Below are positions 1,022 to 42,077 of a stretch of 64,000 nucleotides of DNA, in pieces. Each line of letters opens with the position of its first letter. The stretch's first letter is position 1. The position numbers were made by a program, and so were the translations under genes. The notes beneath the pieces are model-generated. The model ran no database searches and was not told the DNA's origin. It saw nothing but the letters and a program-made list of their open reading frames with translations. Source of the stretch: a virus; the IMG/VR virus record IMGVR_UViG_3300038393_002515. The stretch is one strand, 5' to 3'.

Positions 1022-3918
1022 CGTTCACCCTGGTCCCGATCACGCGGACCTACCTCGACGGCTCGGGGAACCCGCGTACCGGAACGGTTCGGCTGCAACT
1101 CGTCGGCGTGCTCACCAACAACGGGGAGATCGCCGACCGGCGGCCGTACAGCGCCACGCTGGACGCGCAGGGGAAGATATCCCTGAGCGTCCCGGCCACC
1201 AACGACCCGGACACGCTCCCGGTTGGGGGCGGCACCTACGAGGTGACCGAGACCCTGTCCGGGCTGGCCACGGCCACATACTTCATCGCCGTGCCGTACG
1301 ACGGAGGCCCGATCGACCTGGCGACGGCGCCCCGGCTCGCGCAGGCCCTCGCGCCGGGCATCTTCTTCCAGCCCATCAACCAGCGCGGTCTGCCCAACGG
1401 GTACGCGATCCTGGACGGCTCCGGCCGCGTCCCCTACAGCCAGCTGCCCACCGACATCGGCTCCGGCGGCGGGGGCGGCGGGGGCGCCACCCCGATCAGC
1501 GGCGACGACACCGACATCCAGTCCCTGGGCGTGCGGGCCGCTGGAGCCAGCGGCAAGGCCGCCGACGCCCGGCACGTCCACCAGATGCCGCTCCTGCACC
1601 AGGTGGGCAAGCCGACCTCGGACGTCGATCTGAACGGCAGGCGGATCACGAACGCCGCCGACGGCATCAACCCGCAGGACTACGCCACCGTAGCCCAGCT
1701 CGGCCAGTCTGTCCTCGGCTGGTTCAACGTCAAGGACAAGCAGTACGGCGCCAAGGGCGACGGCACCACGGACGACACGGCGGCCATCCAGGCCGCGATC
1801 GACGCGTGCCCGGCCGGTGGCGTCGTCTACCTGCCGCAGGGCATCTACCGCACCTCCTCGACGCTGTACCCGAAGCCGGGCATCGTCATCCAGGGAGCGC
1901 ACGCGTCCCTGATGTCCGGGGTCAACCTCACCGACCCGCCCTGCTACATCCAGCCGCTGACCTCGTTCACCGGCAACGCGCTGATCACCTTCAAGGACCA
2001 GGCCTCCGGGGGCTACGCGAACCTGCCCGCCGAGCACCGGCTGAACGACATCATGCTCGACGGCTCGACACTGGACGGCACCAAGCCGGTCGACGGCATC
2101 TACGCGGCCGGGAACATCCAGAACGTCGTCATGCGCAACGTGACGATCCGGAAGATGTCGAACAACGGCATCGTCACCGCCGGGATCGACAACGTCTTCC
2201 CCTACAGCTGGCGCCTGCACTCGGTGATGATCGACAACTGCCGTGGCAACGGCATGCTCATCACCCGCATGACCGACCTCACCATGATCGACTGTCAGGC
2301 GATCGGCTGCTGGGCCACCGGCTTCAAGTTCACGAACATCGCCAACTCCACCCTGTCGGTCTGCCGGGCCGAGTGGAACGGCAACCACGGCTTCTGGCTC
2401 ACCGGCTCCTGGGGTAACGCCGCCGGATCCGGCGGCGCCATCCTGTCCGCCTGCAGCACCGACCGCAACGGCTGGGACGGCGTACACGTGGACGCCACCG
2501 GCAACGGCCCGCTCACCATCAGCGCGCTCACCACGCGGCGCGACGGACGCAACGGCGGCTCCGGCGGCGGCGGGTATGCGGGCCTGGCCATCAAGAACGC
2601 CACGCTGCCCGTCGTCGTCGATGGCGTCACCTGCTACACCAGCACCGACGACGACGGTACCGGCGCCCCCTCCCCCGACTACGGCGCCAGCATCACCGGC
2701 AACACCAGCGTGCAGCTGTCCGTCGGCTACCTGCACGGCTTTCTCGGCGGTCTGCACGACGACAACACCAATGCCAGCCTCGTCCTCACCCCGGGCGTCA
2801 CCCTGGTCAGCGGCCCGACCACCAACCCGGCGCGTACGGTGAAGCCCTCACCGACGGACTGGATCAACGCCAAAGACCCCAAGTACGGCGCCAGGGGCGA
2901 CGGCGTCACCGACGACACGGCCGCGCTGCAGGCCGCAGTAAGCGCCGCCGCCGCCCTGAAGACCACCCTCTACATACCCAACGGCACCTACATCGTGTCC
3001 ACGCCCGTCGTCCTCCCGGCCGGAGAGGGCTACTCCATCGTCGGCTCCGGCTGGGGCACGTCCCTGAAGCTGAAGGCAGCCTCCAACTGCTTCATCCTAA
3101 AGATGACCGGCGCCGACACCCGGGTCACCATCCGCGACCTGACCCTCGACGGCAACTGCCTGGAGCAGGGCGCCACCGGCACCTCCGGCGGCATCGACGG
3201 CTCCGGCGCCGTCGCCTGCCGCATCGACAACGTGCACTTCACCGCCTGCCGCGACGACGGGCTCTACCTCGCCGGACAGACGGGCGGAGCGTTCGGGCAC
3301 AACAACCGCATCATCGGCTGCTTGTTCGACCAGTCCATGACGTCGACCGGCCCCGGCCGGGGCATCCAGATGAACAGCAACGACGAGAACCAGATCATCG
3401 GCTGTGACTTCGAGTTCCTCGGCGGCTCCGGCGGCACGGGTGCCGATACCGCCGTGTGCATCCTCGACAAGGCGGGCACGCAGTTCATCTCCGACTGCAA
3501 TTTCGTCGGCGGAGCCACGAACAACACCAAGGGCGTCCGCCTGCAGGACTGCAGCGCAACCAAGATCGAGGGATGCAACTTCGACGGCACCGCCGGTGAC
3601 TCGATCTTCGTCGCCGCCACCGGCAACGTCATCGTCGGCAACACCATCTTCAGCCCCGGCGAAGTCGGCACCCTCAGCGGCCAGGTCTCCGGCATCCACC
3701 TGGAATACGCCACCAAGAACAACCTGATCAGCGCCAACTCCATCGCCTCCTCGCCCACCAACGGCAAGACCCGCAGCCTCATCCGCGAGGAAGCAACAGG
3801 CAGCGCCGGACCCAACCTCATCACCAACAACGTCCTGATCACCAAGGGGACGCTCGCGGTGGCGGCCACCGAGTTCGCGGGCGCCGGATCCATCACGACC
3901 CCCAACCTCGGCGTCTGA
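1018..3918 (+). CDS. Tailspike/depolymerase-like protein with two tandem pectate-lyase-type beta-helix domains
   Basis: Two copies of the beta-helix N-cap signature (YGAKGDGTTDDTAAIQAAIDAC, YGARGDGVTDDTAALQAAV), each followed by Gly/Asn/Thr-rich repeats. Translationally coupled to the upstream ORF. Confidence 0.8.
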   Translation: MTFTLVPITRTYLDGSGNPRTGTVRLQLVGVLTNNGEIADRRPYSATLDAQGKISLSVPATNDPDTLPVGGGTYEVTETLSGLATATYFIAVPYDGGPIDLATAPRLAQALAPGIFFQPINQRGLPNGYAILDGSGRVPYSQLPTDIGSGGGGGGGATPISGDDTDIQSLGVRAAGASGKAADARHVHQMPLLHQVGKPTSDVDLNGRRITNAADGINPQDYATVAQLGQSVLGWFNVKDKQYGAKGDGTTDDTAAIQAAIDACPAGGVVYLPQGIYRTSSTLYPKPGIVIQGAHASLMSGVNLTDPPCYIQPLTSFTGNALITFKDQASGGYANLPAEHRLNDIMLDGSTLDGTKPVDGIYAAGNIQNVVMRNVTIRKMSNNGIVTAGIDNVFPYSWRLHSVMIDNCRGNGMLITRMTDLTMIDCQAIGCWATGFKFTNIANSTLSVCRAEWNGNHGFWLTGSWGNAAGSGGAILSACSTDRNGWDGVHVDATGNGPLTISALTTRRDGRNGGSGGGGYAGLAIKNATLPVVVDGVTCYTSTDDDGTGAPSPDYGASITGNTSVQLSVGYLHGFLGGLHDDNTNASLVLTPGVTLVSGPTTNPARTVKPSPTDWINAKDPKYGARGDGVTDDTAALQAAVSAAAALKTTLYIPNGTYIVSTPVVLPAGEGYSIVGSGWGTSLKLKAASNCFILKMTGADTRVTIRDLTLDGNCLEQGATGTSGGIDGSGAVACRIDNVHFTACRDDGLYLAGQTGGAFGHNNRIIGCLFDQSMTSTGPGRGIQMNSNDENQIIGCDFEFLGGSGGTGADTAVCILDKAGTQFISDCNFVGGATNNTKGVRLQDCSATKIEGCNFDGTAGDSIFVAATGNVIVGNTIFSPGEVGTLSGQVSGIHLEYATKNNLISANSIASSPTNGKTRSLIREEATGSAGPNLITNNVLITKGTLAVAATEFAGAGSITTPNLGV

Positions 3919-3920
3919 CT

Positions 3921-3956
3921 GCTGTCCCGGCCCGGCGGCTCCTCCCCAAGGGGTGA
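3921..3956 (+). promoter_or_regulatory. Bipartite late-gene element copy 1 (GCTGTC-N23-GGGGTGA)
   Basis: GCTGTC 3921-3926 and GGGGTGA 3950-3956. CCTCCC 3941-3946 can pair with the SD GGGAGG 3976-3981. Endolysin ATG is at 3989. Confidence 0.6.
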
Positions 3957-12494: not shown

Positions 12495-12525
12495 GCGACA
12501 AACTCTTAATAAGTCTATTTGTCGC
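12495..12525. repeat. AT-rich inverted repeat in a 400-bp non-coding gap
   Basis: GCGACAAA (12495-12502) / TTTGTCGC (12518-12525) around the loop CTCTTAATAAGTCTA. This is one of the most A+T-rich spots I noticed in the window. Confidence 0.8.
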
Positions 12526-12686
12526 CAAAGCGAGGTTCACGCCTCCGCTTCGGCAACAAACCGGTCGCCCAACCTGAATTGTGCCTCAACCCTTGGCCAC
12601 AGGTTCCCCCTTCACGAGGCCTATACAACTCCGTATCGAACCCGTTGCCGCCAACGCCCTCCTGCCCGCCCAGCGCACGAGACCTC

Positions 12687-12721
12687 CTGTTCGTCACACC
12701 CCCTCCGCCCCCAAGGAGCGA
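12687..12721 (+). promoter_or_regulatory. Bipartite late-gene element copy 5 (CTGTT-N23-GGAGCGA, degenerate)
   Basis: CCCTCCGC 12701-12708 can pair with GCGAGGG 12718-12724 (one bulge). Next start is GTG 12762. Confidence 0.45.
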
Positions 12722-12761
12722 GGGCGCACCATGCGCCGCCGCCCGCACAGGAGGACCCGGT

Positions 12762-15700
12762 GTGCTGAAGTTCGCCACGGCCCAGATCATCGCCGCGTCG
12801 CTCGGCGACCAACAGCGCATCACCAGGGCGGCCCACCGCGCGGTCTTCCAGTACGAAGCGCGCCCCGGCTTCTTGTACGTACGCAGCAGGGCCATCAGTT
12901 CACGCTGCAACGACAACTTCGACGAGTTCCCCGCCGAAGAGATCGAAAAGTCGTACAAGACCTTCGTCGGCAAGCCGGTCTTCGTGAACCACGTCAACGA
13001 CAACCACCGGCGCGCCCGGGGCGTCATCATCGACGCCGCCCTCCACCGAGACCGCAACCCCGACGGCACGCCGGACACATGGGCCGAAGTCCTCATGGAA
13101 ATCGACGCCGTCCGGTTCCCGAAGCTGGCCAAGGCGATCCTCGCCGGACACATCGACCGGACCTCCATGGGCTGCGACGTCGAGCGCTCCGTGTGCTCCG
13201 CCTGCGGCAACGAGGCCCGCACGCCCACCGAGTACTGCTCCCACATCCCGCACCTGAAGGGCAAGCGCATCTTCCGCGCCACCGCCAGCGGGAAGAAGGT
13301 CGGCGAGCTCGTCCGCGAGACCTGCTTCGGCCTCCGGTTCTTCGAGAACAGCGTGCTCGTCGAGCCCCCGGCGGACCCGACTGCTCATTTCCTCGGCGTG
13401 GACTCTTCCGGCCTCGGCAAGGCCGCCTCGAAGAGCGCCGCGATCGACTACTCCGCCTTCGAGGACAACGACGACCTGGAGGCGGACGACGACGGCGAGG
13501 ACACCGCGCCTCAGCCGAAGCCCGCCTACCCGGCCTCGCACGCCAAGTCGCCGGTGCCGCATGTCCCGTTCGAGGGCACCACGCACGACCACCAGCGCCG
13601 CCAGGACGCGGTGCAGCACGCCCGGCCCTTCACGCCGCTCAAGCCGAGCCTCAACGGCCTGCAGGCGACGGCGGCCGCGAAGAAGCCCGCGCCCAAGGCG
13701 GCCGAGCCCGAGGTGGACGAGTACGGCACCCCGAAGCCGAAGCGAGGCCAGCCGTACGAGCCTGCGGGAGACCACCCCTGGTACAAGCAGGTCCCGCTGC
13801 ACCACTCCAACATCGTCGACCACTGGGACAAGGCCACCGACGAGGAGAAGGACTCGGGCATGCGCTGGTACAGCGACGCCCACCACGTCGCCAAGGCCAT
13901 CGCCCGCCTCGACCCGCGCATCAAGACCGACGAGGAGGCCGCCCACAAGGGCGCCGGTGTCCTGTCGGCCTACAGCCCGCGCACCAACTGGCCGCAGAAC
14001 ATGTTCAACGCGGCCCACTCCTTCCACCGCCAGGCCGCCGTCCGCCCTCTCAAGGACGACCCGGACAAGCCCGCCCACGTCACCACCATGGGTATGCACG
14101 CCGACAAGGCGCAGCGCATCATGGACGGCGAGCACCACCAGCCGGTCCTGAACTCGCCCAAGACGCAGGACTTCGCCCACCTCATCGAGCACGGCGGCTA
14201 CGAGCCGCAGACCGAGGAGGAGAAGAAGTCCGGTGCCGAACGGCGGCACAGCGGCCGCGTGGTCATCGACCGCCACGCGCTGTCCGTGGCGGCCGGGCGC
14301 CGGATCACCGACGTCGAGAACGACGCCCACCAGGGCTTCCCCGGCGCCTCCAGCGGCAAGCACGCACGGCACTACTACGAGCACGCCGCCAACACCTACC
14401 GCAACGCGGCCGCCGCCATCTCCGAGAAGGAGGGCAAGCCGGTCGCCGCGCACCAGGTGCAGGCGGTGACCTGGCTGGTGCGCCAACGGCTCAACACCGC
14501 CGAGGACCAGGCCAACGCGAACGCCAGCGCGAAGAACCTGGGCGCGGGCCGCAACAAGGCCGAGGAGAACATCAAGGGCCACTGGAAGGACTTCGCGGGC
14601 GAGCACACGCCGGAGCTGAAGGAAAAGGGCAACTCCCACGTGGCCAGGCTCATTGACGCCACGTACATCAACGACGACGGCACGATCCGCGCCATCGCGT
14701 ACGGGGAGATCAAGGCACCGGCCGACGTCGACACGCTCCGCGAGGAGAACTGCCCGGTCTGCGGCGACAAGGACACCTTCGACGGTATCCAGTGCCAGAT
14801 CTGCGGGTTCATCAACCCGCCCGAGCAGTTCCGTGACCCCGACCTCGACAAGGCCAAGACCCTCGACCTGCGCAAGCAGATCGTCGACCCCAGCCTCGTC
14901 GACGACAACGGCGAGCTGCAGCGTGTCAACGACGACGGCACCGGCATGCCGCAGGAAGACGGCATGCCTGGCGACGAGGAACAGCAGCTGGGCCCCGACG
15001 GTCAGCCGCTCGACGAGGACGGCCCGCAGATGGTCGACCCCGAGCAGCTCGACGAGAACGGCCTGCCGCCCTCCCCGTGGGGCGACCAGACCCTCGACGG
15101 CACGATGCAGGGTGCCCCGACCTTCTCCGACCGCAACGGCGACGGCATGATCCAGCCGGACGAGATCGACCCCGACGGCAACGTCAACGTCCAGCAGAAC
15201 ATGATGGTCGACCCCGAGCAGGGCGGCCAGGCAGGCCCGCGCGAGCTGCCCGGCCGCGCCAGGGACCGCACGGGCGACCCGTTCACCCCCGGCCCCGACA
15301 TGCCCCGCCTCCAGGGCCCCGAAGGACCGGAAGACGGACTGGACGACGAAGACACCTTCCAGGCCGGTCCCGGCATGGGAGCTCCGCAGGAGCCGATCCT
15401 GGCGCACCCCGGCGACTACACCGGCGACGAGAGCGAGACGCCGCACTGGTCCTGGAACAGGGACGTGGACGAGGAACCCCAGGCGCCCAACGAGGACGAG
15501 GACCCGCAAGACCCGCGTCGCCGACGCCTTGGGATGTCGGCGGCCCCGCGCACCCCGAAGGACGGACAGCCGAACGACGGCGCGCCCGACCTGAGCTGCC
15601 CCCACTGCGGATTCGGAGCGGACGCCACCGCCCCGCAGACCCAGGACATGGGCAACCCGCAAGGCGCGACCGACGGCATCGTCGCCGGAGACGTCTGCCC

Positions 15701-15794
15701 GAACTGCCGCAAGGCCCAGCTGCTCACCCCCGCCGAGCTGCAGGGCGAGTCTTCCGTCCCTCCGCCTGCTGTCCCGCAGCTGTCCCGGAGCTGA
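12762..15794 (+). CDS. Giant head-module fusion protein: N-terminal prohead-protease-like domain, central helical domain, Asp/Glu/Pro/Gly-rich tract, two zinc ribbons
   Basis: Start at GTG 12762, 7 nt after AGGAGG; the upstream part of the listed ORF is low-complexity and non-coding-like. N-terminal region FVGKPVFVNHVNDNHRRARGVIIDA...TSMGCDVERSVCSACG. CxxC pairs at nt 14751-14804 and 15598-15707. Sits directly upstream of the scaffold-like and capsid genes. The protease call is positional and motif-level only. Confidence 0.7.
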   Translation: MLKFATAQIIAASLGDQQRITRAAHRAVFQYEARPGFLYVRSRAISSRCNDNFDEFPAEEIEKSYKTFVGKPVFVNHVNDNHRRARGVIIDAALHRDRNPDGTPDTWAEVLMEIDAVRFPKLAKAILAGHIDRTSMGCDVERSVCSACGNEARTPTEYCSHIPHLKGKRIFRATASGKKVGELVRETCFGLRFFENSVLVEPPADPTAHFLGVDSSGLGKAASKSAAIDYSAFEDNDDLEADDDGEDTAPQPKPAYPASHAKSPVPHVPFEGTTHDHQRRQDAVQHARPFTPLKPSLNGLQATAAAKKPAPKAAEPEVDEYGTPKPKRGQPYEPAGDHPWYKQVPLHHSNIVDHWDKATDEEKDSGMRWYSDAHHVAKAIARLDPRIKTDEEAAHKGAGVLSAYSPRTNWPQNMFNAAHSFHRQAAVRPLKDDPDKPAHVTTMGMHADKAQRIMDGEHHQPVLNSPKTQDFAHLIEHGGYEPQTEEEKKSGAERRHSGRVVIDRHALSVAAGRRITDVENDAHQGFPGASSGKHARHYYEHAANTYRNAAAAISEKEGKPVAAHQVQAVTWLVRQRLNTAEDQANANASAKNLGAGRNKAEENIKGHWKDFAGEHTPELKEKGNSHVARLIDATYINDDGTIRAIAYGEIKAPADVDTLREENCPVCGDKDTFDGIQCQICGFINPPEQFRDPDLDKAKTLDLRKQIVDPSLVDDNGELQRVNDDGTGMPQEDGMPGDEEQQLGPDGQPLDEDGPQMVDPEQLDENGLPPSPWGDQTLDGTMQGAPTFSDRNGDGMIQPDEIDPDGNVNVQQNMMVDPEQGGQAGPRELPGRARDRTGDPFTPGPDMPRLQGPEGPEDGLDDEDTFQAGPGMGAPQEPILAHPGDYTGDESETPHWSWNRDVDEEPQAPNEDEDPQDPRRRRLGMSAAPRTPKDGQPNDGAPDLSCPHCGFGADATAPQTQDMGNPQGATDGIVAGDVCPNCRKAQLLTPAELQGESSVPPPAVPQLSRS

Positions 15795-34948: not shown

Positions 34949-37432
34949 GTGCCGAATTTCGTCCTGGCCCCGGGCGTGAAGGCATACATCGCGACGGAGA
35001 AGCACGGAATCATCGACGTCTCGGACGACCTTGTCGAGGGCTCGATGACGCGCCGGTCGGACGGCGTCAGCTCATTCAATTTCAGCCTGCAGAACACCCG
35101 GCGGAAGTACGACGGCGTGCTCACCCCGAACGACCGCATCTCGGTGCAGATGAAGCGGCTGAAGTGGGTGCAGGTCTTCACCGGCTACCTGAACAAGGTG
35201 CCGCTCGTGACGGCCTGGCCGCGTGTCGTCCACCTGACCGCTTCGTGCTCGCTGAAGCGGCTGCAGTACTGGTACTGGGACTCCCACGCCGAGGCGTCGC
35301 AGGCCATGGTGCGCCAGGCCCTGGAGGACGCGGGGAAGGACACCGGTGTCTCCGACGGCGGCATGACGAATGTCGCGCTCACCGTGCTGAAGAAGGTCGT
35401 CGGCTGGCCCGAGTCGAAGGTCCACATCGCCCGTATCCCGGGCACCTGGTTCTCCGTCGTCGAGACCCTGGCCAAGCAGATCAACGCCCAGCTCGACGAC
35501 GCCGACGAGATCGCGCGTGCCCTGTTCGAGCAGCTTGGCACCGCGTCCGTCGGCGGTACGGGCGGTGCCGACGCCAGCTCGCTGAACGGCACCTACGGCG
35601 GGTTCAACAACCCGGACCAGAAGGCCAACGCCGCGATCATCTACAACGTCGGCAAGGAGAAGGGCGGCTCCGGCCGCGACTGCATCATCGCGATCATGGT
35701 GGCGATGCAGGAGTCAGGCCTGCGCAACCTCAAGGGGGGCGACCGGGACAGCGCAGGCCTGTTCCAGCAGCGGCCCTCACAGGGCTGGGGTACGTACGAG
35801 CAGGTGACGGACCCTCGGTACGCGTCGGGGAAGTTCTTCGACGCCCTCTTCGAGGTCAAGAACCGCAACAGCATGGAGCTGTGGCAGGCATGCCAGGCCG
35901 TGCAGCGCTCCGGGGTCCCGAGGGCGTACGCGAAGCGCGAGAAGCCTGCGACCGCCATGGTGCGCGACCTGGAAAAGGGCGGCGGGAAGTACGGGGACCT
36001 CAAGTCGAAGCCCCAGGGCACCATCTCCGGCGTCGACCTGGCCCAGCTCGCGGTGAACTTCTGCCAGAAGTACCCGAACATCCCGTACACCCAGAAGTAC
36101 GGCGGCACCCAGCTCGACGTACTCTCGCAGAACCCCCCGCCCGGCCTGGACTGCTCCAGCTTCGTGCAGGCCATGTACCTGCGCGCGTTGGGCTCGCTGT
36201 ACGGCCTGCCGCGCGTGGCGTCCGCGCAGTACGACGCCTGCAAGAAGGTGTCGGTGGAGAAGGCGCTGAAGACGCCCGGGGCGCTCGTCTTCAAGGGGTC
36301 CTCGCCGGACGGCATCTACCACGTCGAGATGAGCCTGGGTGACGGCAAGAGCACGATCGGCGCGCACCGCGCCGGGGCCAAGCCGCACGACGTCGGCATC
36401 AACCCGCCGTCGGCGCCGTCGTACTGGGACTACGGCGGCTTCCTGCCTCGCGTCGCGTACACCACCGGCGCGGGCACGGTCATCTTCGAGGGGTCGGACG
36501 GCACCAGCGGCGGCGTCAACGACATGAGCGGCGATCCCGGGGTCGAGCTGTCCACCGGCGCCGACGCGCCTGGGTACAACCCCAAGGACCCGTTCGACAA
36601 GATGTTCGGCGACAACGCCTGGGCGCCGATCTCGACGGCGGAGAACGACCCGAACTACTTCCTGGCCCAGGCTCTGGCCGGACCGCGTGCGCTGCTGAAC
36701 GACCAGCCGCTGCTGCCTTACCTGAAGAACCTGTTCAACTCGACGATGCGGAGCTTCTGCAGCGCACCGAATGGTGACCTGATCGCCTGGTACCCGGACT
36801 ACTACGGGATGTGGGGCACGGCCGCCAAGATGGTCATCCAGCCCATCGAGGTGCAGGACTTCGAGGTGTCCTGGTCGGACGACTACATGGTCACCCACCA
36901 GTTCGTCGTCACCTCGCCGCAGACGCGAAACCTCTTCGACCCGGCGACTGGAACCGTGCAGCAGTCCGTCGCTGACTCCGTCCTGGCGAACATGGCCGTC
37001 TTCACCACGGGCGTCGTCACCGTCGACTTCCCGGGCGTGTGGAAGGCCCTGTTCGGGATGGACATGACGGAGAAGCAGGCGAAGGCGTACGCGGACTCGA
37101 TCAAGCAGCGGTTCGGTGCCCGGCCGGACTACCAGCAGCTCCCTGGTCTCGTCGGCCCGAAGGCGCAGCTGTTCACTGCGATCTTCCTGTTCATGCGGCA
37201 GTTCGCCTTCCAGTACCAGGCGTCCATTCCGTTGACCTTCATGCCGGAGCTGTGGCCGGGCATGCTGCTGCAGTTCCCGGCCTTCAACTTCCAGGCGTAC
37301 GTCACGACGGTGACGCACAGCTTCAAGTTCGGCGAGGGCGGTTACTTCAACACCTCGGTCAGCATCGCGGCCCCGGCCCGTCTCACCGGTGACAAGAAGC
37401 TGCTCGGCCTGCCGATGGCGGGAGGCAACTGA
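34949..37432 (+). CDS. Baseplate hub (gpD/gp27-like N-terminus) carrying two cell-wall hydrolase domains including NlpC/P60
   Basis: N-terminus resembles late-control-D/hub proteins. Middle region has ...MVAMQESGLRNLKGGDRDSAGLFQQRPSQGWGT (muralytic-domain-like). NlpC/P60 signature GLDCSSFVQAMY...GIYHVEMSLGDGKSTIGAH. Confidence 0.8.
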   Translation: MPNFVLAPGVKAYIATEKHGIIDVSDDLVEGSMTRRSDGVSSFNFSLQNTRRKYDGVLTPNDRISVQMKRLKWVQVFTGYLNKVPLVTAWPRVVHLTASCSLKRLQYWYWDSHAEASQAMVRQALEDAGKDTGVSDGGMTNVALTVLKKVVGWPESKVHIARIPGTWFSVVETLAKQINAQLDDADEIARALFEQLGTASVGGTGGADASSLNGTYGGFNNPDQKANAAIIYNVGKEKGGSGRDCIIAIMVAMQESGLRNLKGGDRDSAGLFQQRPSQGWGTYEQVTDPRYASGKFFDALFEVKNRNSMELWQACQAVQRSGVPRAYAKREKPATAMVRDLEKGGGKYGDLKSKPQGTISGVDLAQLAVNFCQKYPNIPYTQKYGGTQLDVLSQNPPPGLDCSSFVQAMYLRALGSLYGLPRVASAQYDACKKVSVEKALKTPGALVFKGSSPDGIYHVEMSLGDGKSTIGAHRAGAKPHDVGINPPSAPSYWDYGGFLPRVAYTTGAGTVIFEGSDGTSGGVNDMSGDPGVELSTGADAPGYNPKDPFDKMFGDNAWAPISTAENDPNYFLAQALAGPRALLNDQPLLPYLKNLFNSTMRSFCSAPNGDLIAWYPDYYGMWGTAAKMVIQPIEVQDFEVSWSDDYMVTHQFVVTSPQTRNLFDPATGTVQQSVADSVLANMAVFTTGVVTVDFPGVWKALFGMDMTEKQAKAYADSIKQRFGARPDYQQLPGLVGPKAQLFTAIFLFMRQFAFQYQASIPLTFMPELWPGMLLQFPAFNFQAYVTTVTHSFKFGEGGYFNTSVSIAAPARLTGDKKLLGLPMAGGN

Positions 37433-37665
37433 TGATGGGTCCGGGGAACGCCGCTACGCACGGGATCGGCTGGACGGTCAAGCAGGTCCGGGTCCGCGAG
37501 CTGATAGCGGGCAAGAAGCTCGCTCTGTGCGTGGACACCGAGGGCACGCAGATCGAGGTCACCACGGCCATCCACCGCACCGGCATCACGCCGGTTGTCG
37601 GTCAGGACTGGCTGGTCGACCGCACATACGGGGTATGGAGCTTCGCCGCCTGGCTGGACGTGTAA
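37432..37665 (+). CDS. Small baseplate-associated protein (spike/OB-fold-like, positional)
   Basis: 77 aa. TGATG overlap with the hub gene. Confidence 0.55.
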   Translation: MMGPGNAATHGIGWTVKQVRVRELIAGKKLALCVDTEGTQIEVTTAIHRTGITPVVGQDWLVDRTYGVWSFAAWLDV

Positions 37666-37686
37666 AAAACTGACGGCCCGGAAACC

Positions 37687-37702
37687 GTGACATGCATGTC
37701 AC
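37687..37702. repeat. Palindrome copy 1: GTGACATGCATGTCAC (parS-like candidate)
   Basis: 16-bp perfect palindrome, 22 nt after the + gene stop (37665). Confidence 0.9.
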
Positions 37703-37720
37703 AGAATCCGAGCCGTCCAA

Positions 37721-37744
37721 ATCTGTGACATGCATGTCACAGAT
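37721..37744. repeat. Palindrome copy 2: ATCTGTGACATGCATGTCACAGAT (parS-like candidate)
   Basis: 24-bp perfect palindrome with the same 16-bp core, 7 nt beyond the parB-like stop (37751). Confidence 0.9.
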
Positions 37745-37750
37745 CCTGAG

Positions 37751-38635
37751 TCAGCCGGTGAGCAGGCCTTCGGCCTCGGCCACCCTCTTCTTCATGTCCT
37801 CGACGTACTCCTCGGCGGACTGCCGGTCGACCTTGACCAGCTCCTGGAGGAGCGCCAGGTCGATCTTCCCGGCGGCACGGGCCTCCTTCAGGCGGACGTC
37901 GACAGGACGCGGCTGGCGAGCGGTGATCTCCTTGGGCCCTTTGGCGGCCAGGGCGGTGGCCTCCATGAGGCGGCGGAGGTGCCTCACCGCCGAGATGGTC
38001 ACCGGGCCCTCCTTTGCCAGCTCGGTGTACTTGGCGCGGAGGAGGTCGTGGTCGTCCTTGCCAATGGTGTACAGCTCGTCCACGACGTTCTGGGCCAGCG
38101 GCTCGGTCAGCAGGCCATCGAGCGCGGTGTAGACGACGTGATGCTTGATCGCGCGGTAGTAGGTGTGCCGCTCGATGCCGATGGAGTGGGCGAACTTCTC
38201 GACGGACTTGTGGCCGCCCGCCTTGTAGCTGCCCTTGGCCTGGACCTCGGCGAGCCAGCGGCCGGTGAGGGTCCAGTAGTTCTTCTCGATCTCGGCGAAC
38301 CCGCTGCCAGCCGCCTCGCCGATCTTGCGGATCTGGCGTTCCGCGTGCGCGAGGTGCTGCAGGTCGCTGATGTCGTCCGGCGCGGGGACGTACTGGAAGG
38401 GGTCGGCGGGCTCCGGGGAGTGGACGATCCCTTCAAGAGGCGCCTGAGCGACCTGGTGGGGCACCTGCGGCTCATCGGCCGGTTCGCTCACAGCGGCGGC
38501 GGCAGCGGCTTCCAGCTCATCGTCCTCGCCTCGGCGGGCCTGAGAGCTGACGGCCTGAGCGGCGGCCAGCGCCGCTGCGGCCCGCTTCTGGGCGGCGGTC
38601 TGCTTCGGCTTCGGTGCGACAGTCACTCGGCCCAT
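37751..38635 (-). CDS. Partition-operon partner protein (ParB-analogue/centromere-binding candidate) with an HTH
   Basis: Translationally coupled to the ParA gene (TGATG at 38633-38637). Ala-rich acidic N-terminus and an HTH-like segment KSVEKFAHSIGIERHTYYRAIKH. No classical ParB GxxRxxA box seen. Confidence 0.6.
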   Translation of the reverse strand: MGRVTVAPKPKQTAAQKRAAAALAAAQAVSSQARRGEDDELEAAAAAAVSEPADEPQVPHQVAQAPLEGIVHSPEPADPFQYVPAPDDISDLQHLAHAERQIRKIGEAAGSGFAEIEKNYWTLTGRWLAEVQAKGSYKAGGHKSVEKFAHSIGIERHTYYRAIKHHVVYTALDGLLTEPLAQNVVDELYTIGKDDHDLLRAKYTELAKEGPVTISAVRHLRRLMEATALAAKGPKEITARQPRPVDVRLKEARAAGKIDLALLQELVKVDRQSAEEYVEDMKKRVAEAEGLLTG

Positions 38636-39432
38636 CAGGCGGCCAGTCCCTTCATGAGGTGGCGGAACAGCAGGCCGAACTCTTCGAGGTGGCCTCGCTT
38701 CGGGGTGGTCTCCCAGGCGCGCGGGTAGTCCGGGGAACCGCTGATCTGGAACTCCTTCGGCACGACGGCTGCCTTAACCCGGGAGGGGTCCTCGGCTTTG
38801 ACGATGGCCTCCAGGACGGGGCGCTGCTCGTCGGCGAGCGTGTTGTTGCCGGAGCACTTCACCAGGAAGACCGAGACGGCGAGATCCGGGTTGGCCTTGG
38901 TGCCCTTGGCTGCCTGGCGGATCGACGCCTTGATGCGGGAGATCTCGAAGCCGGACGGGGCGACGGGGAGGATCACCATGTTGGCGACCTTGCACATCTC
39001 CCAGTACGTCTCCTTGCCTGCGCCGCCGATGTCGACGATGACGACCTGGTAGGACTTCTTGAGTTCCTCGATCACGTCGTCGAGGTCCGGTCCGTCTTCG
39101 TCCTTGGGGTCGTAGTTGACGAGGTCGAAGGGGACGTGCTCGGGGGCGGGGTTCCCCTCGTCGTCGACTCGGTTCTCGCGGATCCGGTACCAGTTGTCGA
39201 CCGTCTGGGAGTTGTCGTCGGTGTCGACCACCGCAACCTTCAGGCCGAGGAGGATGGACAGGTACAGCGCCAGGAAGATCGCGCTGGTCGTCTTGCCGGT
39301 GCCTCCCTTGAGGACGCCGATCCCGATGACGAGGCAGCCGTTCTCGTCGAGCCACGCGAAGATCTCCTCGCGCGACGCGGCCTGTGCCATCACCTTCTTG
39401 TGCTGTTGTCTGGGGAGCGTAGAAGTCTTCAC
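38635..39432 (-). CDS. parA: ParA/Soj-family partition ATPase
   Basis: Deviant Walker A VLKGGTGKTTSAIFLA, then VVDTDDNSQ and VIVDIGGAG boxes. Start placed at GTG 39432 (SD AGGAAGG 6 nt upstream); ATG 39390 is an alternative. The listed start 39552 would overlap the divergent gene. Confidence 0.8.
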   Translation of the reverse strand: MKTSTLPRQQHKKVMAQAASREEIFAWLDENGCLVIGIGVLKGGTGKTTSAIFLALYLSILLGLKVAVVDTDDNSQTVDNWYRIRENRVDDEGNPAPEHVPFDLVNYDPKDEDGPDLDDVIEELKKSYQVVIVDIGGAGKETYWEMCKVANMVILPVAPSGFEISRIKASIRQAAKGTKANPDLAVSVFLVKCSGNNTLADEQRPVLEAIVKAEDPSRVKAAVVPKEFQISGSPDYPRAWETTPKRGHLEEFGLLFRHLMKGLAA

Positions 39433-39504
39433 TCCGGGTCCCTTCCTAGGCGGTTGTCGCCCCACATCTTGCCGCACCGGCGTTGCCCGGGTGCGCAGGA
39501 CCCC

Positions 39505-39539
39505 GTGTTTCACCCCCGATTTGAAGCGGAAGGGGGTGA
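39505..39539 (+). promoter_or_regulatory. Bipartite late-gene element copy 15 (GTGTT-N23-GGGGTGA, degenerate 5' box)
   Basis: TCACCCCC 39510-39517 pairs with GGGGGTGA 39532-39539. SD GGAGGTGG and ATG 39551 follow. Confidence 0.45.
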
Positions 39540-39550
39540 GGAGGTGGCTC

Positions 39551-39979
39551 ATGAAGACGCTGGCTCTCGTCGGCGGTGACCTGGCACTGGGGGATGGCGG
39601 CTACCGGACGCTCACCGGCGCGGCCCGCATCCGGCAGGACCTGGCGCTCGCGCTCGCCGAGCCGTACGGCCACGACACCTACCACCCGCAGTTCGGGTCG
39701 GTGCTGGCCGCGCACATCGGTGAGCCGCTGACGCCGGAATTGGAGCTGCTGGTCCGCGCGGAGGTCGTGCGGGTGGTCCAGCAGTACGTGGACGGCCAGC
39801 AGGCTCAGATCGCAGCCGACGCCCTGTCCGGTTCCCGGTCACGGTTCAGCTTCCAGGATGTGGTGCAGTCGGTGCAGTCCATCAGTACGGACATCCAGTA
39901 CGACACGATCAAGGTGACCATCGCGCTGAAGACGCAGTCCGGCGGTACGGTCCGAGTGCTGCGGACGGTGAGCACCTGA
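39551..39979 (+). CDS. Baseplate wedge protein, gp25/GPW-like
   Basis: 142 aa. MKTLALVGGDLALGDGGY...IRQDLALAL...G...P.FGS pattern typical of the GPW/gp25 family. Precedes the J-like gene. Confidence 0.7.
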   Translation: MKTLALVGGDLALGDGGYRTLTGAARIRQDLALALAEPYGHDTYHPQFGSVLAAHIGEPLTPELELLVRAEVVRVVQQYVDGQQAQIAADALSGSRSRFSFQDVVQSVQSISTDIQYDTIKVTIALKTQSGGTVRVLRTVST

Positions 39980-39981
39980 TT

Positions 39982-40001
39982 CTGTGACATGCATGTCACA
40001 G
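39982..40001. repeat. Palindrome copy 3: CTGTGACATGCATGTCACAG (parS-like candidate)
   Basis: 20-bp perfect palindrome identical to the core of copy 2, 3 nt after the gp25-like stop. Confidence 0.9.
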
Positions 40002-40135
40002 GTCCGCTGAATCGGTATGGTGGTGCGCCTCGGGCGACGCGCGTCCGATTCAGCAGAAGACCTCACCGCTCCGAACCGGGTGACGCCGGGGAGCACCGGG
40101 GTCGGCGCGGCCCCCAGTTCCAGCTGGAGGCAGAA

Positions 40136-40172
40136 GGCGGAGTCCACCCATAGGGACTCCGCCTTCATTTTT
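40136..40172 (+). terminator. Canonical rho-independent terminator
   Basis: GGCGGAGTCC (40136-40145) / GGACTCCGCC (40154-40163), followed by TTCATTTTT. Confidence 0.75.
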
Positions 40173-40208
40173 GCTGTGCGGTGCCTTCCTCTCGTCCTCA
40201 AGGGGTGA
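40173..40208 (+). promoter_or_regulatory. Bipartite late-gene element copy 16 (GCTGTG-N23-GGGGTGA)
   Basis: Abuts the terminator's T-tract. GCCTTCCTCTCGTC 40183-40196 pairs with GACGAGAAGGAGGGC 40207-40221 (one bulged A), burying the SD AAGGAGG. ATG is at 40227. Confidence 0.65.
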
Positions 40209-40226
40209 CGAGAAGGAGGGCGCCGC

Positions 40227-42077
40227 ATGGGTGTTTCCAGGGACGACATCGTCTCGCAGATGCGTGACGCGCTGCTGGTGTCCGACCCGGAGCTGGACAC
40301 GTCCATCGGCACCCCGGTGCGGAAGATCCTGGACGCGGTCGCAGCGTCGCTGGCCGACGCCTACGTCGAGAACCACCTGCTGTCGTACGCCTACGACATC
40401 GACAGCAAGACGGACGCCGACCTGGACTCCTTCTGCCAACTGTTCGGCATCGCGCGGATCGCGGCCCGGCGCTCGGTCGGCACGGTGACCTTCTCCCGGA
40501 CCGGCGACCTGACCCCGACCGTGTTCATCCCGGTCGGCACGGAGATCGCGTCCTCGTCGGACTCCTCGGTCGTGGTCACCACGGTGGTCGGCGGCACGCT
40601 CATGCCGGGCGCCTCGTCGGTCACGGTGCCAGTCCAGGCCGTGACGGCCGGTCCGGAGGGCAACCTGGGTGCGGGGATGGCCACCCAGATCACCTCCCCG
40701 ATCCAGGGCGTCAACACCGTCACGAACACGGCTGCCTTGACCGGTGGCCTGTCCCGGGAGACCGACTCGGAGCTGCGGACCCGCTGGAAGTCGACCGTGT
40801 TCCGGTCGCTTGCCGGTACGGAGCAGATGTACCGGGGCGTGGCCCTGGACGACACCGACTGCTACGCGGTGTCCGTCGTCGGCTCCTCCCGGACACGATC
40901 GGAGATCCTGCAGGTGCCCGCGACCGGCAACACGGTCTGCCAGATCACGGACGCCCGCTACATCTACTCCTCGCCGGTGCAGGTGACGAAGTCCGACGGC
41001 ACGCCGCTGATCAAGGACTACGACTACACGTGGATCCCGTCGAATCCGCCCGCCATCGCCGGACTGTCGGCGTCGTTCCCTGCGGCCGGTGAGCTGCTCA
41101 CGGTCGAGTACCAGTACCTGCCGGTAGTGAGCCGGAACGACCCGGCGAACAACATCACGAACCGGGTGGACATTTTCGTCGGCGGCACCCGGGCGCAGTC
41201 GGCCCAGACGTCGCTGGTGTTCAAGCAGACGAAGAGGTTCCAGACCGTCTCGACTGTGGACCTGTACACCGGGGCGTGGCTGCGGTCGGACCAGACACGG
41301 CCGGACGCGAACAACGTCTTCGTGCCGCTGCCGTTCGGGCCGATCGTGACCGTGCCGTCCACGATGTCGGTCGCGGGCACGACGTACGGTCTGGCTACGA
41401 CGGCACACCCGCTGGGTACGGTGGCCAACGGCGTGACGTACGCGTACACGGTTGTCCATGAGGACACGGTGGACGGCTGGACGCCGACCTCGCGCTTCGG
41501 CCTGGAGTGGCACCGCACCTACCTGCCCGCCGACAACTCGCCGGTCTCCGTCGGCGGTAACGGCGACTACACCTACAACGAGGTACCCGCCTCGGTGCAG
41601 GACGCGGTCAACCGGTGGCGGTTGACAGGGATCGACGCCCAGGTTCACCAGGCAAAACAGCGCTGGCTGCGGTTCGCGCTGGGCGTGATGTACACGGCGT
41701 CGTCGACTGGGTCGGTTGACTCGGTCCAGGACGCCATCCGGTCCGCCTTGAGTGACTACCTGAACCGGATGGACTTCAACTCCAACGTCCAGATCAGCGA
41801 CGTCCTCACAGTCATCCACCAGGTACCCGGCGTGGACAACTGCCGCCTGCTCAACGGCGCGGACGTGACCGGCTACACCTCGGCCAACCCGAACGCGTCG
41901 ATCGTGGGCGTCCAGCAGATCGCTCCGAACGCGGCTCCGAACTCCGCCGCGCTGTTCTCCCACGTCGACCCGGCAACCGGCCGGGCCAAGGACATCTACT
42001 TCCGCGACGACGAACTGCCCGTGCTCGGAGGCGTGGTCTTCAAGACCCTCGCCCGCAACTCCTTCGGGGTGCTGTGA
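40227..42077 (+). CDS. Baseplate J-like protein
   Basis: 616 aa. N-terminal third matches the Baseplate_J pattern (...GTPVRKILDAVA...DLDSFCQLFGIARI.A..SVGTVTF...VPVQAVTAGPEGN...ALTGG...ETDSELR.R). Confidence 0.8.
   Translation: MGVSRDDIVSQMRDALLVSDPELDTSIGTPVRKILDAVAASLADAYVENHLLSYAYDIDSKTDADLDSFCQLFGIARIAARRSVGTVTFSRTGDLTPTVFIPVGTEIASSSDSSVVVTTVVGGTLMPGASSVTVPVQAVTAGPEGNLGAGMATQITSPIQGVNTVTNTAALTGGLSRETDSELRTRWKSTVFRSLAGTEQMYRGVALDDTDCYAVSVVGSSRTRSEILQVPATGNTVCQITDARYIYSSPVQVTKSDGTPLIKDYDYTWIPSNPPAIAGLSASFPAAGELLTVEYQYLPVVSRNDPANNITNRVDIFVGGTRAQSAQTSLVFKQTKRFQTVSTVDLYTGAWLRSDQTRPDANNVFVPLPFGPIVTVPSTMSVAGTTYGLATTAHPLGTVANGVTYAYTVVHEDTVDGWTPTSRFGLEWHRTYLPADNSPVSVGGNGDYTYNEVPASVQDAVNRWRLTGIDAQVHQAKQRWLRFALGVMYTASSTGSVDSVQDAIRSALSDYLNRMDFNSNVQISDVLTVIHQVPGVDNCRLLNGADVTGYTSANPNASIVGVQQIAPNAAPNSAALFSHVDPATGRAKDIYFRDDELPVLGGVVFKTLARNSFGVL

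Follow-up and report, generated by a model that had tools for sequence, protein, structure and literature searches.

The 64,000-nucleotide stretch of viral DNA from IMG/VR record IMGVR_UViG_3300038393_002515 (the window) carries three copies of a perfect palindrome at a two-gene cassette consisting of parA, which encodes a small Walker-type ATPase, and orf294, which encodes a 294-aa helix-turn-helix (HTH) protein. We consider it likely that these palindromes are the centromere (parS) sites of a partition cassette of the ParT type. The original prediction, made from the sequence of the window, had described them as parS-like, and our computational comparisons support this core of it. Support comes from the anatomy of the cassette, the conservation of the sites and their restriction to it, their co-variation with orf294 and the homology of the orf294 protein to ParT, all of which are shown by the analysis. 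The sites and the two genes are as follows.

37687-37702, no strand: copy 1, distal parS-like site, perfect 16-bp palindrome
37721-37744, no strand: copy 2, proximal parS-like site, perfect 24-bp palindrome ATCTGTGACATGCATGTCACAGAT
39982-40001, no strand: copy 3, accessory third parS-like site, perfect 20-bp palindrome CTGTGACATGCATGTCACAG
37751-38635, minus strand: orf294, ParT-like CTPase-less HTH protein, predicted to bind the centromere (hhalign, AF2 model, family alignments)
38635-39390, minus strand: parA, small Walker-type ParA/MinD-family ATPase, 251 aa from MAQ (Pfam, PHROG, NCBIfam)

A pattern search of the window found exact copies of the 16-bp core GTGACATGCATGTCAC at 37687-37702, 37725-37740 and 39984-39999 and no further match with up to three mismatches allowed. 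By chance 0.18 matches are expected, and three matches occurred in none of 100 shuffles. Moreover, GTGACATGCATGTCAC is the sole word of at least 14 nt that is found at least three times in the window. The three copies, their absence elsewhere in the window and the coordinates of the 24-bp and 20-bp extensions were thus as first described. Copy 1 is a perfect palindrome over 16 bp only, as its 18-bp form CGTGACATGCATGTCACA has one imperfect outer position. It starts 49 nt past the orf294 stop, a position that is kept in relatives, and 22 nt past the stop of a 77-aa gene (37665). The core of copy 2 lies 38 bp from that of copy 1 (start to start) and 11 nt past the orf294 stop; the 24-bp palindrome ends 6 nt short of the end of orf294 (37751). 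Copy 3 is located 2,259 bp from copy 2, beyond a gp25-like gene, and starts 3 nt past the stop of this gene (39979). Since parA most likely starts at 39390 (MAQ..., 251 aa), as it is called in relatives including identical contigs, copy 3 lies about 590 bp upstream of parA instead of the about 550 bp given before; the other gene positions of the copies were correct.

Conservation of the sites and co-variation with orf294

The sites were searched for in the window, in the complete plasmid pRLB1-9.1 and in the fetched loci of relatives. The window is about 90% identical to pRLB1-9.1, a closed circular plasmid of 154,158 bp from Streptomyces sp. RLB1-9. In this whole 154-kb sequence the palindrome occurs only twice, both times just 3' of the orf294 homologue and with 38-bp spacing, and the next-nearest sequences differ from it at four positions. 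A scatter of copies at gene ends, which had been named as the mark of a generic terminator, was not seen in this complete relative, where the palindrome is confined to the cassette.

Close relatives were fetched via the protein (L001, L008, L009, L011, L013, L125/L138, L135, L137, L139 and L140). Their orf294 proteins are 63-80% identical, and all loci have two to three copies of the palindrome, the first of them 8-13 nt past the stop and successive copies 37-38 bp apart. Across ten elements the mean pairwise identity of the sites is 0.97, and 1.00 inside the ATGCAT type, while spacers and flanks reach 0.48-0.55. The most divergent close clade (P0022/P0025) has GTGACACGCGTGTCAC, a symmetric change at two positions, in every copy of each element. 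In L011 the distant third copy, too, is GTGACACGCGTGTCAC, the ACGCGT variant of that element, and thus appears to evolve together with the primary copies. The tandem pair 3' of orf294 makes up the core array. The bracketing of the cassette by palindromes, as proposed before, is true in the window and is not a conserved property, because the third copy is missing in most relatives.

A scan of 185,579 genomes with a degenerate 16-mer gave at least 120 loci. Among those listed, 118 were single matches in scattered unrelated taxa, which is consistent with chance, and a pair with 38-bp spacing was found only in Streptomyces sp. MH60 (L125), beside an orf294 homologue. In a metagenome scan with the alignment of the orf294 protein no relative was confirmed.

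In distant relatives, whose proteins are 21-40% identical, the gene is always located immediately downstream of parA, and one or two copies of an own palindrome are found at the stop codon, starting at the earliest 3 nt before its end and at the latest 11 nt behind it. Taken over all relatives examined, one to three palindromes lie at the stop of the orf294 homologue, with the stop overlapped in two of them and tandem copies 33-49 bp apart. The site types and the predicted recognition helices are given below (half-sites separated by a slash or by the central bases).

Window clade: TGTGACATG/CATGTCACA; helix ERHTYYRAIKH
P0022/P0025 clade: GTGACACG/CGTGTCAC; helix (E/K)RH(G/D)YYRAIKH
L141: TGTCCCATGCGCATGGGACA, i.e. 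TGTCCCATGC/GCATGGGACA; helix DRKQYYRLIEG
L142 and L144: TGTGACCCAcTGGGTCACA, i.e. TGTGACCCA-c-TGGGTCACA; helix TRQDVYRLRRA
L145: TGTGCCCCAacTGGGGCACA, i.e. TGTGCCCCA-ac-TGGGGCACA; helix TRKDVYRYKDA
L146: TTGTCGCACGTGCGACAA, i.e. TTGTCGCAC/GTGCGACAA; helix SRQHAYRAMQS
L148: CCTTCCCAGCGCTGGGAAGG, i.e. CCTTCCCAGC/GCTGGGAAGG, two copies 49 bp apart; helix KGKDYYRIIDA
L149: TGTGAACCATGGTTCACA, i.e. TGTGAACCA/TGGTTCACA, two copies 33 bp apart; helix SGRTARNWMDA
ParT of SCP2, validated parS: TGTCTCCAA/TTGGAGACA; helix KRAHAYRMIEG

P0028 and P0030 are 48% identical overall with an identical predicted recognition helix, and the 31-bp palindromes of their elements, which occur in different gene contexts, have stayed 96.8% identical. 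One site for each distinct helix and a shared site for identical helices is the pattern expected of a cognate pair of protein and DNA. The repeated identity of the copies had been taken as a sign of sequence-specific recognition. Sites that stay invariant amid diverged flanks and co-vary with orf294 argue for this interpretation.

The orf294 protein and known partition systems

Searches of Pfam, PHROG and NCBIfam with orf294 gave nothing, even at E<=1 across 24 family members and including the ParB domain PF02195, and no relative was found among PDB sequences. An exhaustive HMMER search of 1.84 billion representatives yielded only 17 relatives. The AlphaFold2 (AF2) model has a predicted local distance difference test (pLDDT) score of 78 and consists of a disordered region (residues 1-65) followed by helices only, with pLDDT <50 at residues 1-6 and 30-65. 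The modelled layout comprises a basic disordered N-terminus, a long helix (91-134), an HTH (145-171) and further helices, among them those at 245-293 behind a low-confidence linker at about 232-244. In the family alignments the N-terminus varies, except that an ARRGE motif is near-invariant and an MxR start frequent. In a Foldseek search with the truncated domain, the best match from the ParB family was the DNA-binding domain of Noc (6y93_B) at rank 2, with an E-value of 0.97 and TM-scores of 0.39/0.48; VirB (3w2a) stood at rank 42, and both were below significance.

Sukhoverkov et al. (PNAS 2025, PMC12260392) described the ParATS system of SCP2 from Streptomyces coelicolor, in which ParT (SCP2.04c) is a ParB-like protein without a CTPase. 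This CTP-independent type of partition was first reported in that year, from a single conjugative plasmid, and its validated parS is an 18-bp inverted repeat, TGTCTCCAATTGGAGACA. We retrieved SCP2, collected ParT homologues and compared the two family profiles by hhalign. The orf294 family matched the ParT family with 98.1% probability (E 1.3e-13) over 128 columns, aligning orf294 residues 83-225 with ParT residues 66-200; this stretch comprises the long helix together with the HTH domain. With ParT alone as a single sequence, the probability was 85%. On this profile comparison orf294 is a remote homologue of ParT, i.e. a CTPase-less, ParB-like HTH protein. The earlier label 'ParB-like' has to be corrected in that orf294 is not a canonical ParB, as it has neither the CTPase/ParB N-terminal domain nor a Pfam match.

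The two cassettes share several features. In both, a small Walker ParA gene is followed by an overlapping gene for a CTPase-less HTH protein of about 300 aa, the long helix and the HTH domain are homologous, and the host genus is Streptomyces. The AF2 model of orf294 also suggests the layout reported for ParT (PMC12260392), in which a flexible basic peptide at the N-terminus is followed by a long alpha-2 helix, by the HTH domain and, beyond a linker, by a helical C-terminal domain. In addition, the SCP2 parS and the sites predicted here are both 18-bp inverted repeats with TGT..C arms. However, ParT and orf294 are mutually undetected by BLAST and phmmer, and their families have no common members; a tblastn search of plasmids with orf294 found pRLB1-9.1 only. 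The flexible, positively charged N-terminal peptide with which ParT contacts ParA carries an SRR motif, whereas the N-terminus of orf294 is modelled as disordered and basic and has ARRGE plus MxR (or FGGRG) instead. ParT, which diffuses on DNA independently of NTPs, has a C-terminal domain for constitutive dimerisation after its flexible linker, and the orf294 helices 245-293 do not align with this domain. SCP2 contains one parS inside the parT coding sequence (record positions 3566-3583); in contrast, two to three extragenic sites lie just 3' of the gene and 37-38 bp apart in the family studied here. Finally, SCP2 is a 31-kb conjugative plasmid and not a myovirus-like phage-plasmid of about 155 kb.

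The cassette resembles the canonical type-I ParABS systems (chromosomal Spo0J/ParB, P1 ParB, F SopB) in that the gene of a Walker-type ParA precedes that of its partner and that the palindromic site is about 16 bp long, like chromosomal parS. P1 and F likewise have their centromere downstream of the operon, and the basic peptide at the N-terminus, which is presumed to stimulate ParA, is a further shared feature. The sequence of the window site itself is presumably unrelated to chromosomal parS of the GTTTCAC type. Unlike the canonical proteins, orf294 has no detectable ParB/Srx-like CTPase domain (PF02195), and its structural similarity to ParB, Noc or KorB stays below significance. Type-Ia plasmid ParAs carry an N-terminal HTH which the window ParA lacks. 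An assignment to the ParB-CTPase class was rejected, as Pfam, NCBIfam, PHROGs and PDB sequences all gave no ParB/Srx domain.

The type Ib systems ParF-ParG of TP228 and delta-omega of pSM19035 also have a small ParA without N-terminal HTH and a binding protein with a flexible N-terminus, in which an arginine is thought to stimulate the ATPase. Their binding protein is a small ribbon-helix-helix dimer and not a 294-aa all-helical HTH protein, and their centromere repeats are located upstream of parA and serve as operator, whereas the sites described here lie downstream and none is found at the promoter region 39391-39550. Type Ib was ruled out, given the lack of a ribbon-helix-helix protein and of a site at the parA promoter. 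In the summary of Dedrick 2016 given by Wetzel 2020 (PMC7157519), the parS loci of mycobacteriophage RedRock and other Cluster A phages lie on either side of parAB, and each consists of an 8-bp motif that is directly repeated about eight times. They are temperate actinobacteriophages too, whose extrachromosomal prophage relies on parA-parB and flanking cis sites in place of integration. The phage type, a siphovirus of about 50 kb, and the position of the cassette are different, and two to three palindromes of 16-24 bp stand here in place of 8-bp direct repeats. Because of this difference from RedRock as described there, and as no similarity to a deposited phage was found, a RedRock-type parABS was not assigned.

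Alternative explanations and points against a centromere

The 3' end of a gene is 3-22 nt away from every copy, and bidirectional terminators had been offered as an alternative from the start. The distal copy does lie in a terminator-like structure.

37664-37717, minus strand: terminator-like extended hairpin of the parA-orf294 operon (sequence, terminator scan, RNA fold)

Copy 1 sits between GC-rich outer arms (37672-37682 and 37707-37717), the minus strand continues behind the hairpin with a T-run (an A-run at 37664-37669 on the plus strand), and the scan gave a terminator-like match at 37688-37673 on the minus strand. The RNA of the operon's 3' untranslated region folds with -53.5 kcal/mol (z = -7) and continues with UUUUUU. 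Owing to the fold, the U-run and the enclosing arms, copy 1 also belongs to a one-directional terminator, and in most elements the distal copy has such GC-rich arms and a T-run on the parAB strand, for example in the window, L001, L135, L013 and L139. The terminator proposal is thus partly true for the distal copy, which caps the hairpin of the operon; features of Rho-independent termination were found for this copy only and on the minus strand. The view that the palindromes are nothing but terminators or hairpins in the RNA where the ends of genes converge, kept by descent and with no specific protein partner, could also draw on L141, L142 and L144, whose single palindromes lie between A/T runs like a bidirectional terminator. 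We nevertheless regard it as very unlikely. An element kept for its structure should drift in a compensatory manner, as the outer stems around the distal copy do, which vary between relatives yet stay complementary; the core of 16-20 bp is invariant amid flanks of about 50% identity. Changes of the core are identical in all copies of an element, even 2.26 kb away, and two to three identical tandem hairpins at a fixed spacing of 37-38 bp would be superfluous for termination. Moreover, copies 2 and 3 have no T-run, and in L008, L137, L148 and L149 the sites are followed by a canonical terminator separate from them and are thus not needed for termination there. For these two reasons the sites are not merely terminators.

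It has to be considered as well whether the sites are operators for a regulator, either orf294 as repressor or another HTH/XRE repressor of the phage, the latter having been an alternative of the original prediction. The targets would be read-through between the late operons and the cassette or the small-RNA-like element next to copy 3. The protein has an HTH while its partition role is predicted only, pRLB1-9.1 encodes several HTH regulators elsewhere, and the cassette lies antisense between late units with promoter-like motifs of their own. A conserved structured RNA-like insert has the third site directly at its 5' side. Still, no site is present in the promoter-like region of parA or of putative regulators, both sites of the whole 154-kb relative are found downstream of the operon, and the third site is missing in most relatives. 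The sites travel with parA-orf294 into unrelated contexts and co-vary with orf294 and no other gene. Since they are found nowhere else in the complete relative and move with the cassette, the repressor proposal is weakened, and the strict pairing with ParA together with the ParT homology favours partition. Overall, we judge operators to be unlikely.

The insert beside the third site was characterized by an alignment of three versions and by RNAalifold.

40002-40172, plus strand: structured non-coding insert of about 170 nt

Copy 3 forms the 5' edge of an insertion of about 185 nt between the gp25-like stop and a promoter-like motif of baseplate J. L001, L135, L008, L009, L013, L137 and L140 do not have this insertion. 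It can be aligned in L011 and L139, with the third site at the same distance, and its counterparts (L011:165-368 and L139:2318-2521, both minus strand) bring it to only three elements among those examined, in all of which (3/3) it is preceded by the element's own parS-like palindrome. Its indels are not in triplets, 11 of the 63 pairs in the RNAalifold consensus show compensatory changes, and a stem-loop with T-run (40133-40166) ends it as a separate terminator 130 nt past copy 3. Rfam and ARAGORN run on the window gave nothing for the insert, and an IMG/VR search with its most conserved 16-mer returned only the contig already known. We suggest the insert as a candidate small RNA gene with an extra binding site in its 5' flank. 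Accordingly, the third site is accessory. The location of this site at the 5' edge of the insert between baseplate units and that of the distal site in the operon terminator give rise to a further idea, namely that the sites and the ParT-like protein couple assembly of the partition complex to the control of small-RNA or late-gene read-through. Transcription across the sites would then evict or load the clamp, and a centromere-binding clamp would double as an insulator between lysogeny and lysis. We think this quite unlikely.

A recombination or boundary function, i.e. a target of a tyrosine recombinase or of dimer resolution that marks insertion of parA-orf294 (with gp25) into the baseplate module, appears highly improbable. 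It would fit the window, where the copies flank the parA-orf294-gp25 block, the different gene contexts of the cassette in distant relatives and the two tyrosine recombinases encoded by pRLB1-9.1. Against it, most relatives have every copy on the same side of the cassette, the third copy is part of the separate insertion of about 185 nt, the recombinase genes of pRLB1-9.1 are more than 50 kb away, and the sequence of the site tracks the HTH protein. Perfect palindromes without an asymmetric core are also atypical of tyrosine-recombinase sites.

Several points speak against sites of a ParT-type centromere. Foldseek searches of the PDB with full and truncated orf294 models gave nothing at E<=0.001. 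The homology to ParT is limited to about 130 central residues, leaving the N- and C-terminal parts unaligned, and the SRR motif of ParT is not conserved as such in the orf294 family. The co-variation comprises about eight site types which belong to one phylogeny and are not independent, so that it is a correlation. The identical copies 1 and 2 can pair in RNA as a very stable terminator, and several distant relatives have a single palindrome between A/T runs as an ordinary bidirectional terminator would. The presumed promoter region of parA, 39391-39550, contains neither a copy of the palindrome nor a half-site, so autoregulation is not explained by these sites. The degenerate 16-mer scan with its at least 120 listed loci says nothing of host chromosomes. 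Finally, the functional steps of the partition mechanism outlined below are all inferred.

Gene context and a model for phage-plasmid maintenance

A gene map of the region was drawn from codon-position GC bias and family searches.

34949-37432, plus strand: NlpC/P60 virion protein
37432-37665, plus strand: 77-aa gene
39391-39550, no strand: spacer between the divergently oriented parA and gp25-like genes, presumed to contain the parA promoter (inferred only)
39551-39979, plus strand: gp25-like baseplate gene
40227-42077, plus strand: baseplate J

The genes on the plus strand make up a tail/baseplate module which is interrupted by the two minus-strand genes parA and orf294. The partition cassette (37751-39390) thus lies antisense amid the baseplate module (34949-42077), between the 77-aa and gp25-like genes, and the position is the same in most relatives and also in L141 and L144. 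The homologous cassettes of L142, L148 and L149 are found in unrelated, non-structural contexts, so that the cassette behaves as a portable module. ParA has the deviant Walker A motif KGGTGKT, matches MipZ, CbiA and AAA_31 of Pfam as well as PHROG 164 ('ParA-like partition protein'), and matches NCBIfam ParA_partition below the curated cut-off. The parA stop codon and the orf294 start codon overlap at 38635, and ParA is adjacent to an orf294-family gene in every relative examined. A sigma-70 promoter scan of 37400-40400 gave zero matches.

A bipartite motif, CTGT(C/G)C - ~17-19 nt - C(T/C)CAAGGGGTGA(C/G), occurs on the plus strand of the window at 3945, 18892, 24868, 26317, 28028, 40197 and 48818. 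Late structural genes, among them baseplate J, have it 20-45 nt 5' of their start codons, and it may be a late-promoter or 5'-UTR (untranslated region) element of the phage; pRLB1-9.1 encodes a protein with sigma-70 region 4. Another candidate for the binding protein was a 1,091-aa protein (12519-15794, plus strand), whose homologue in pRLB1-9.1 is annotated as 'ParB/RepB/Spo0J family partition protein'. It was rejected, being 22 kb distant and matching only DUF7178 in Pfam, and the sites follow orf294 into contexts that contain no homologue of it within the flanks examined. This protein of the head-gene region may be a ParB-fold fusion protein with no relation to the partition cassette.

The window is a member of a family of myovirus-like Streptomyces phage-plasmids of about 155 kb, and a partition system is therefore an expected maintenance function. 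pRLB1-9.1 carries genes for an HK97-fold capsid protein, tail, baseplate, DNA polymerase III alpha, DnaB and thymidylate synthase, and baseplate J of the window is about 30% identical to that of the Cluster C mycobacteriophages of about 155 kb. The phage GenBank collection gave neither a DNA match to the locus nor a tblastn match to orf294. The orf294 homologues fall into 25 clusters at 90% identity; all members with a named source come from Streptomyces, and many are located on contigs of 151-157 kb. Streptomyces contigs or closed 'plasmids' of this length (NZ_CP041653.1, JBHTRK010000017.1, JBFBHY010000019.1 and NZ_MULI01000008.1) are complete myovirus-like phage genomes. Genes for capsid, sheath, baseplate, Pol III alpha, DnaB and ThyX are found on these phage-plasmids of 151-157 kb, which are distant relatives of the Cluster C mycobacteriophages with about 30% identity for baseplate J, and no counterpart was found in the deposited phage collection. 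The family is also found on two contigs of about 304-310 kb, roughly double this length, which might be a circular replicon assembled as a dimer. L003 (NZ_CP041653.1 69862-71032) contains tgmA, which encodes the precursor of an ATP-grasp-modified RiPP (ribosomally synthesized and post-translationally modified peptide), and an ATP-grasp ligase of the MvdC/MvdD type. This small biosynthetic cluster lies beyond the part of the plasmid that was aligned to the window.

In our model of a ParT-type centromere the cassette would keep the phage-plasmid of about 155 kb stably inherited in its plasmid state. The 294-aa protein, assigned to the ParT type by homology only, would bind as a dimer to each inverted repeat of 18-20 bp, (C)TGTGACATG/CATGTCACA(G), with one HTH per half-site, and the tandem pair 38 bp apart and 3' of its own gene would create a high local concentration of the protein. 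The protein may load at the sites and diffuse onto flanking DNA without CTP, as ParT of SCP2 does. Its disordered, Arg-rich N-terminus with ARRGE and MxR start would contact ParA and stimulate the ATPase, and nucleoid-bound ParA-ATP would separate the plasmid copies by a Brownian ratchet. Judging from sequence and folding, the distal site would in addition cap the intrinsic terminator of the parA-orf294 transcript; because this terminator is one-directional, late transcription of tail and baseplate genes on the other strand would not be stopped. The third site, 2.26 kb off, would be an optional loading or regulatory site that arrived with the structured-RNA insert.

The kind of system is known, as it combines a Walker ParA, a CTPase-less ParB-like HTH protein and an inverted-repeat parS. 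The family described here is a sequence-distinct branch of it, with a different N-terminal motif, extragenic tandem sites, a terminator-fused site and a phage-plasmid host. Our reading would extend ParT-type partition to a distinct protein family on large Streptomyces phage-plasmids and on other ParA-linked cassettes, with a different design of the centromere in which tandem sites lie outside the gene and one of them is fused to a terminator. The centromere would be predictable for each member, and about eight pairs of helix and site would provide a natural series for the reading of DNA by ParT-like proteins. Furthermore, closed Streptomyces 'plasmids' of about 155 kb are flagged as myovirus-like phage-plasmids, which is of use for annotation, the prediction of incompatibility and vector design, and the cassette would be their defined maintenance module.

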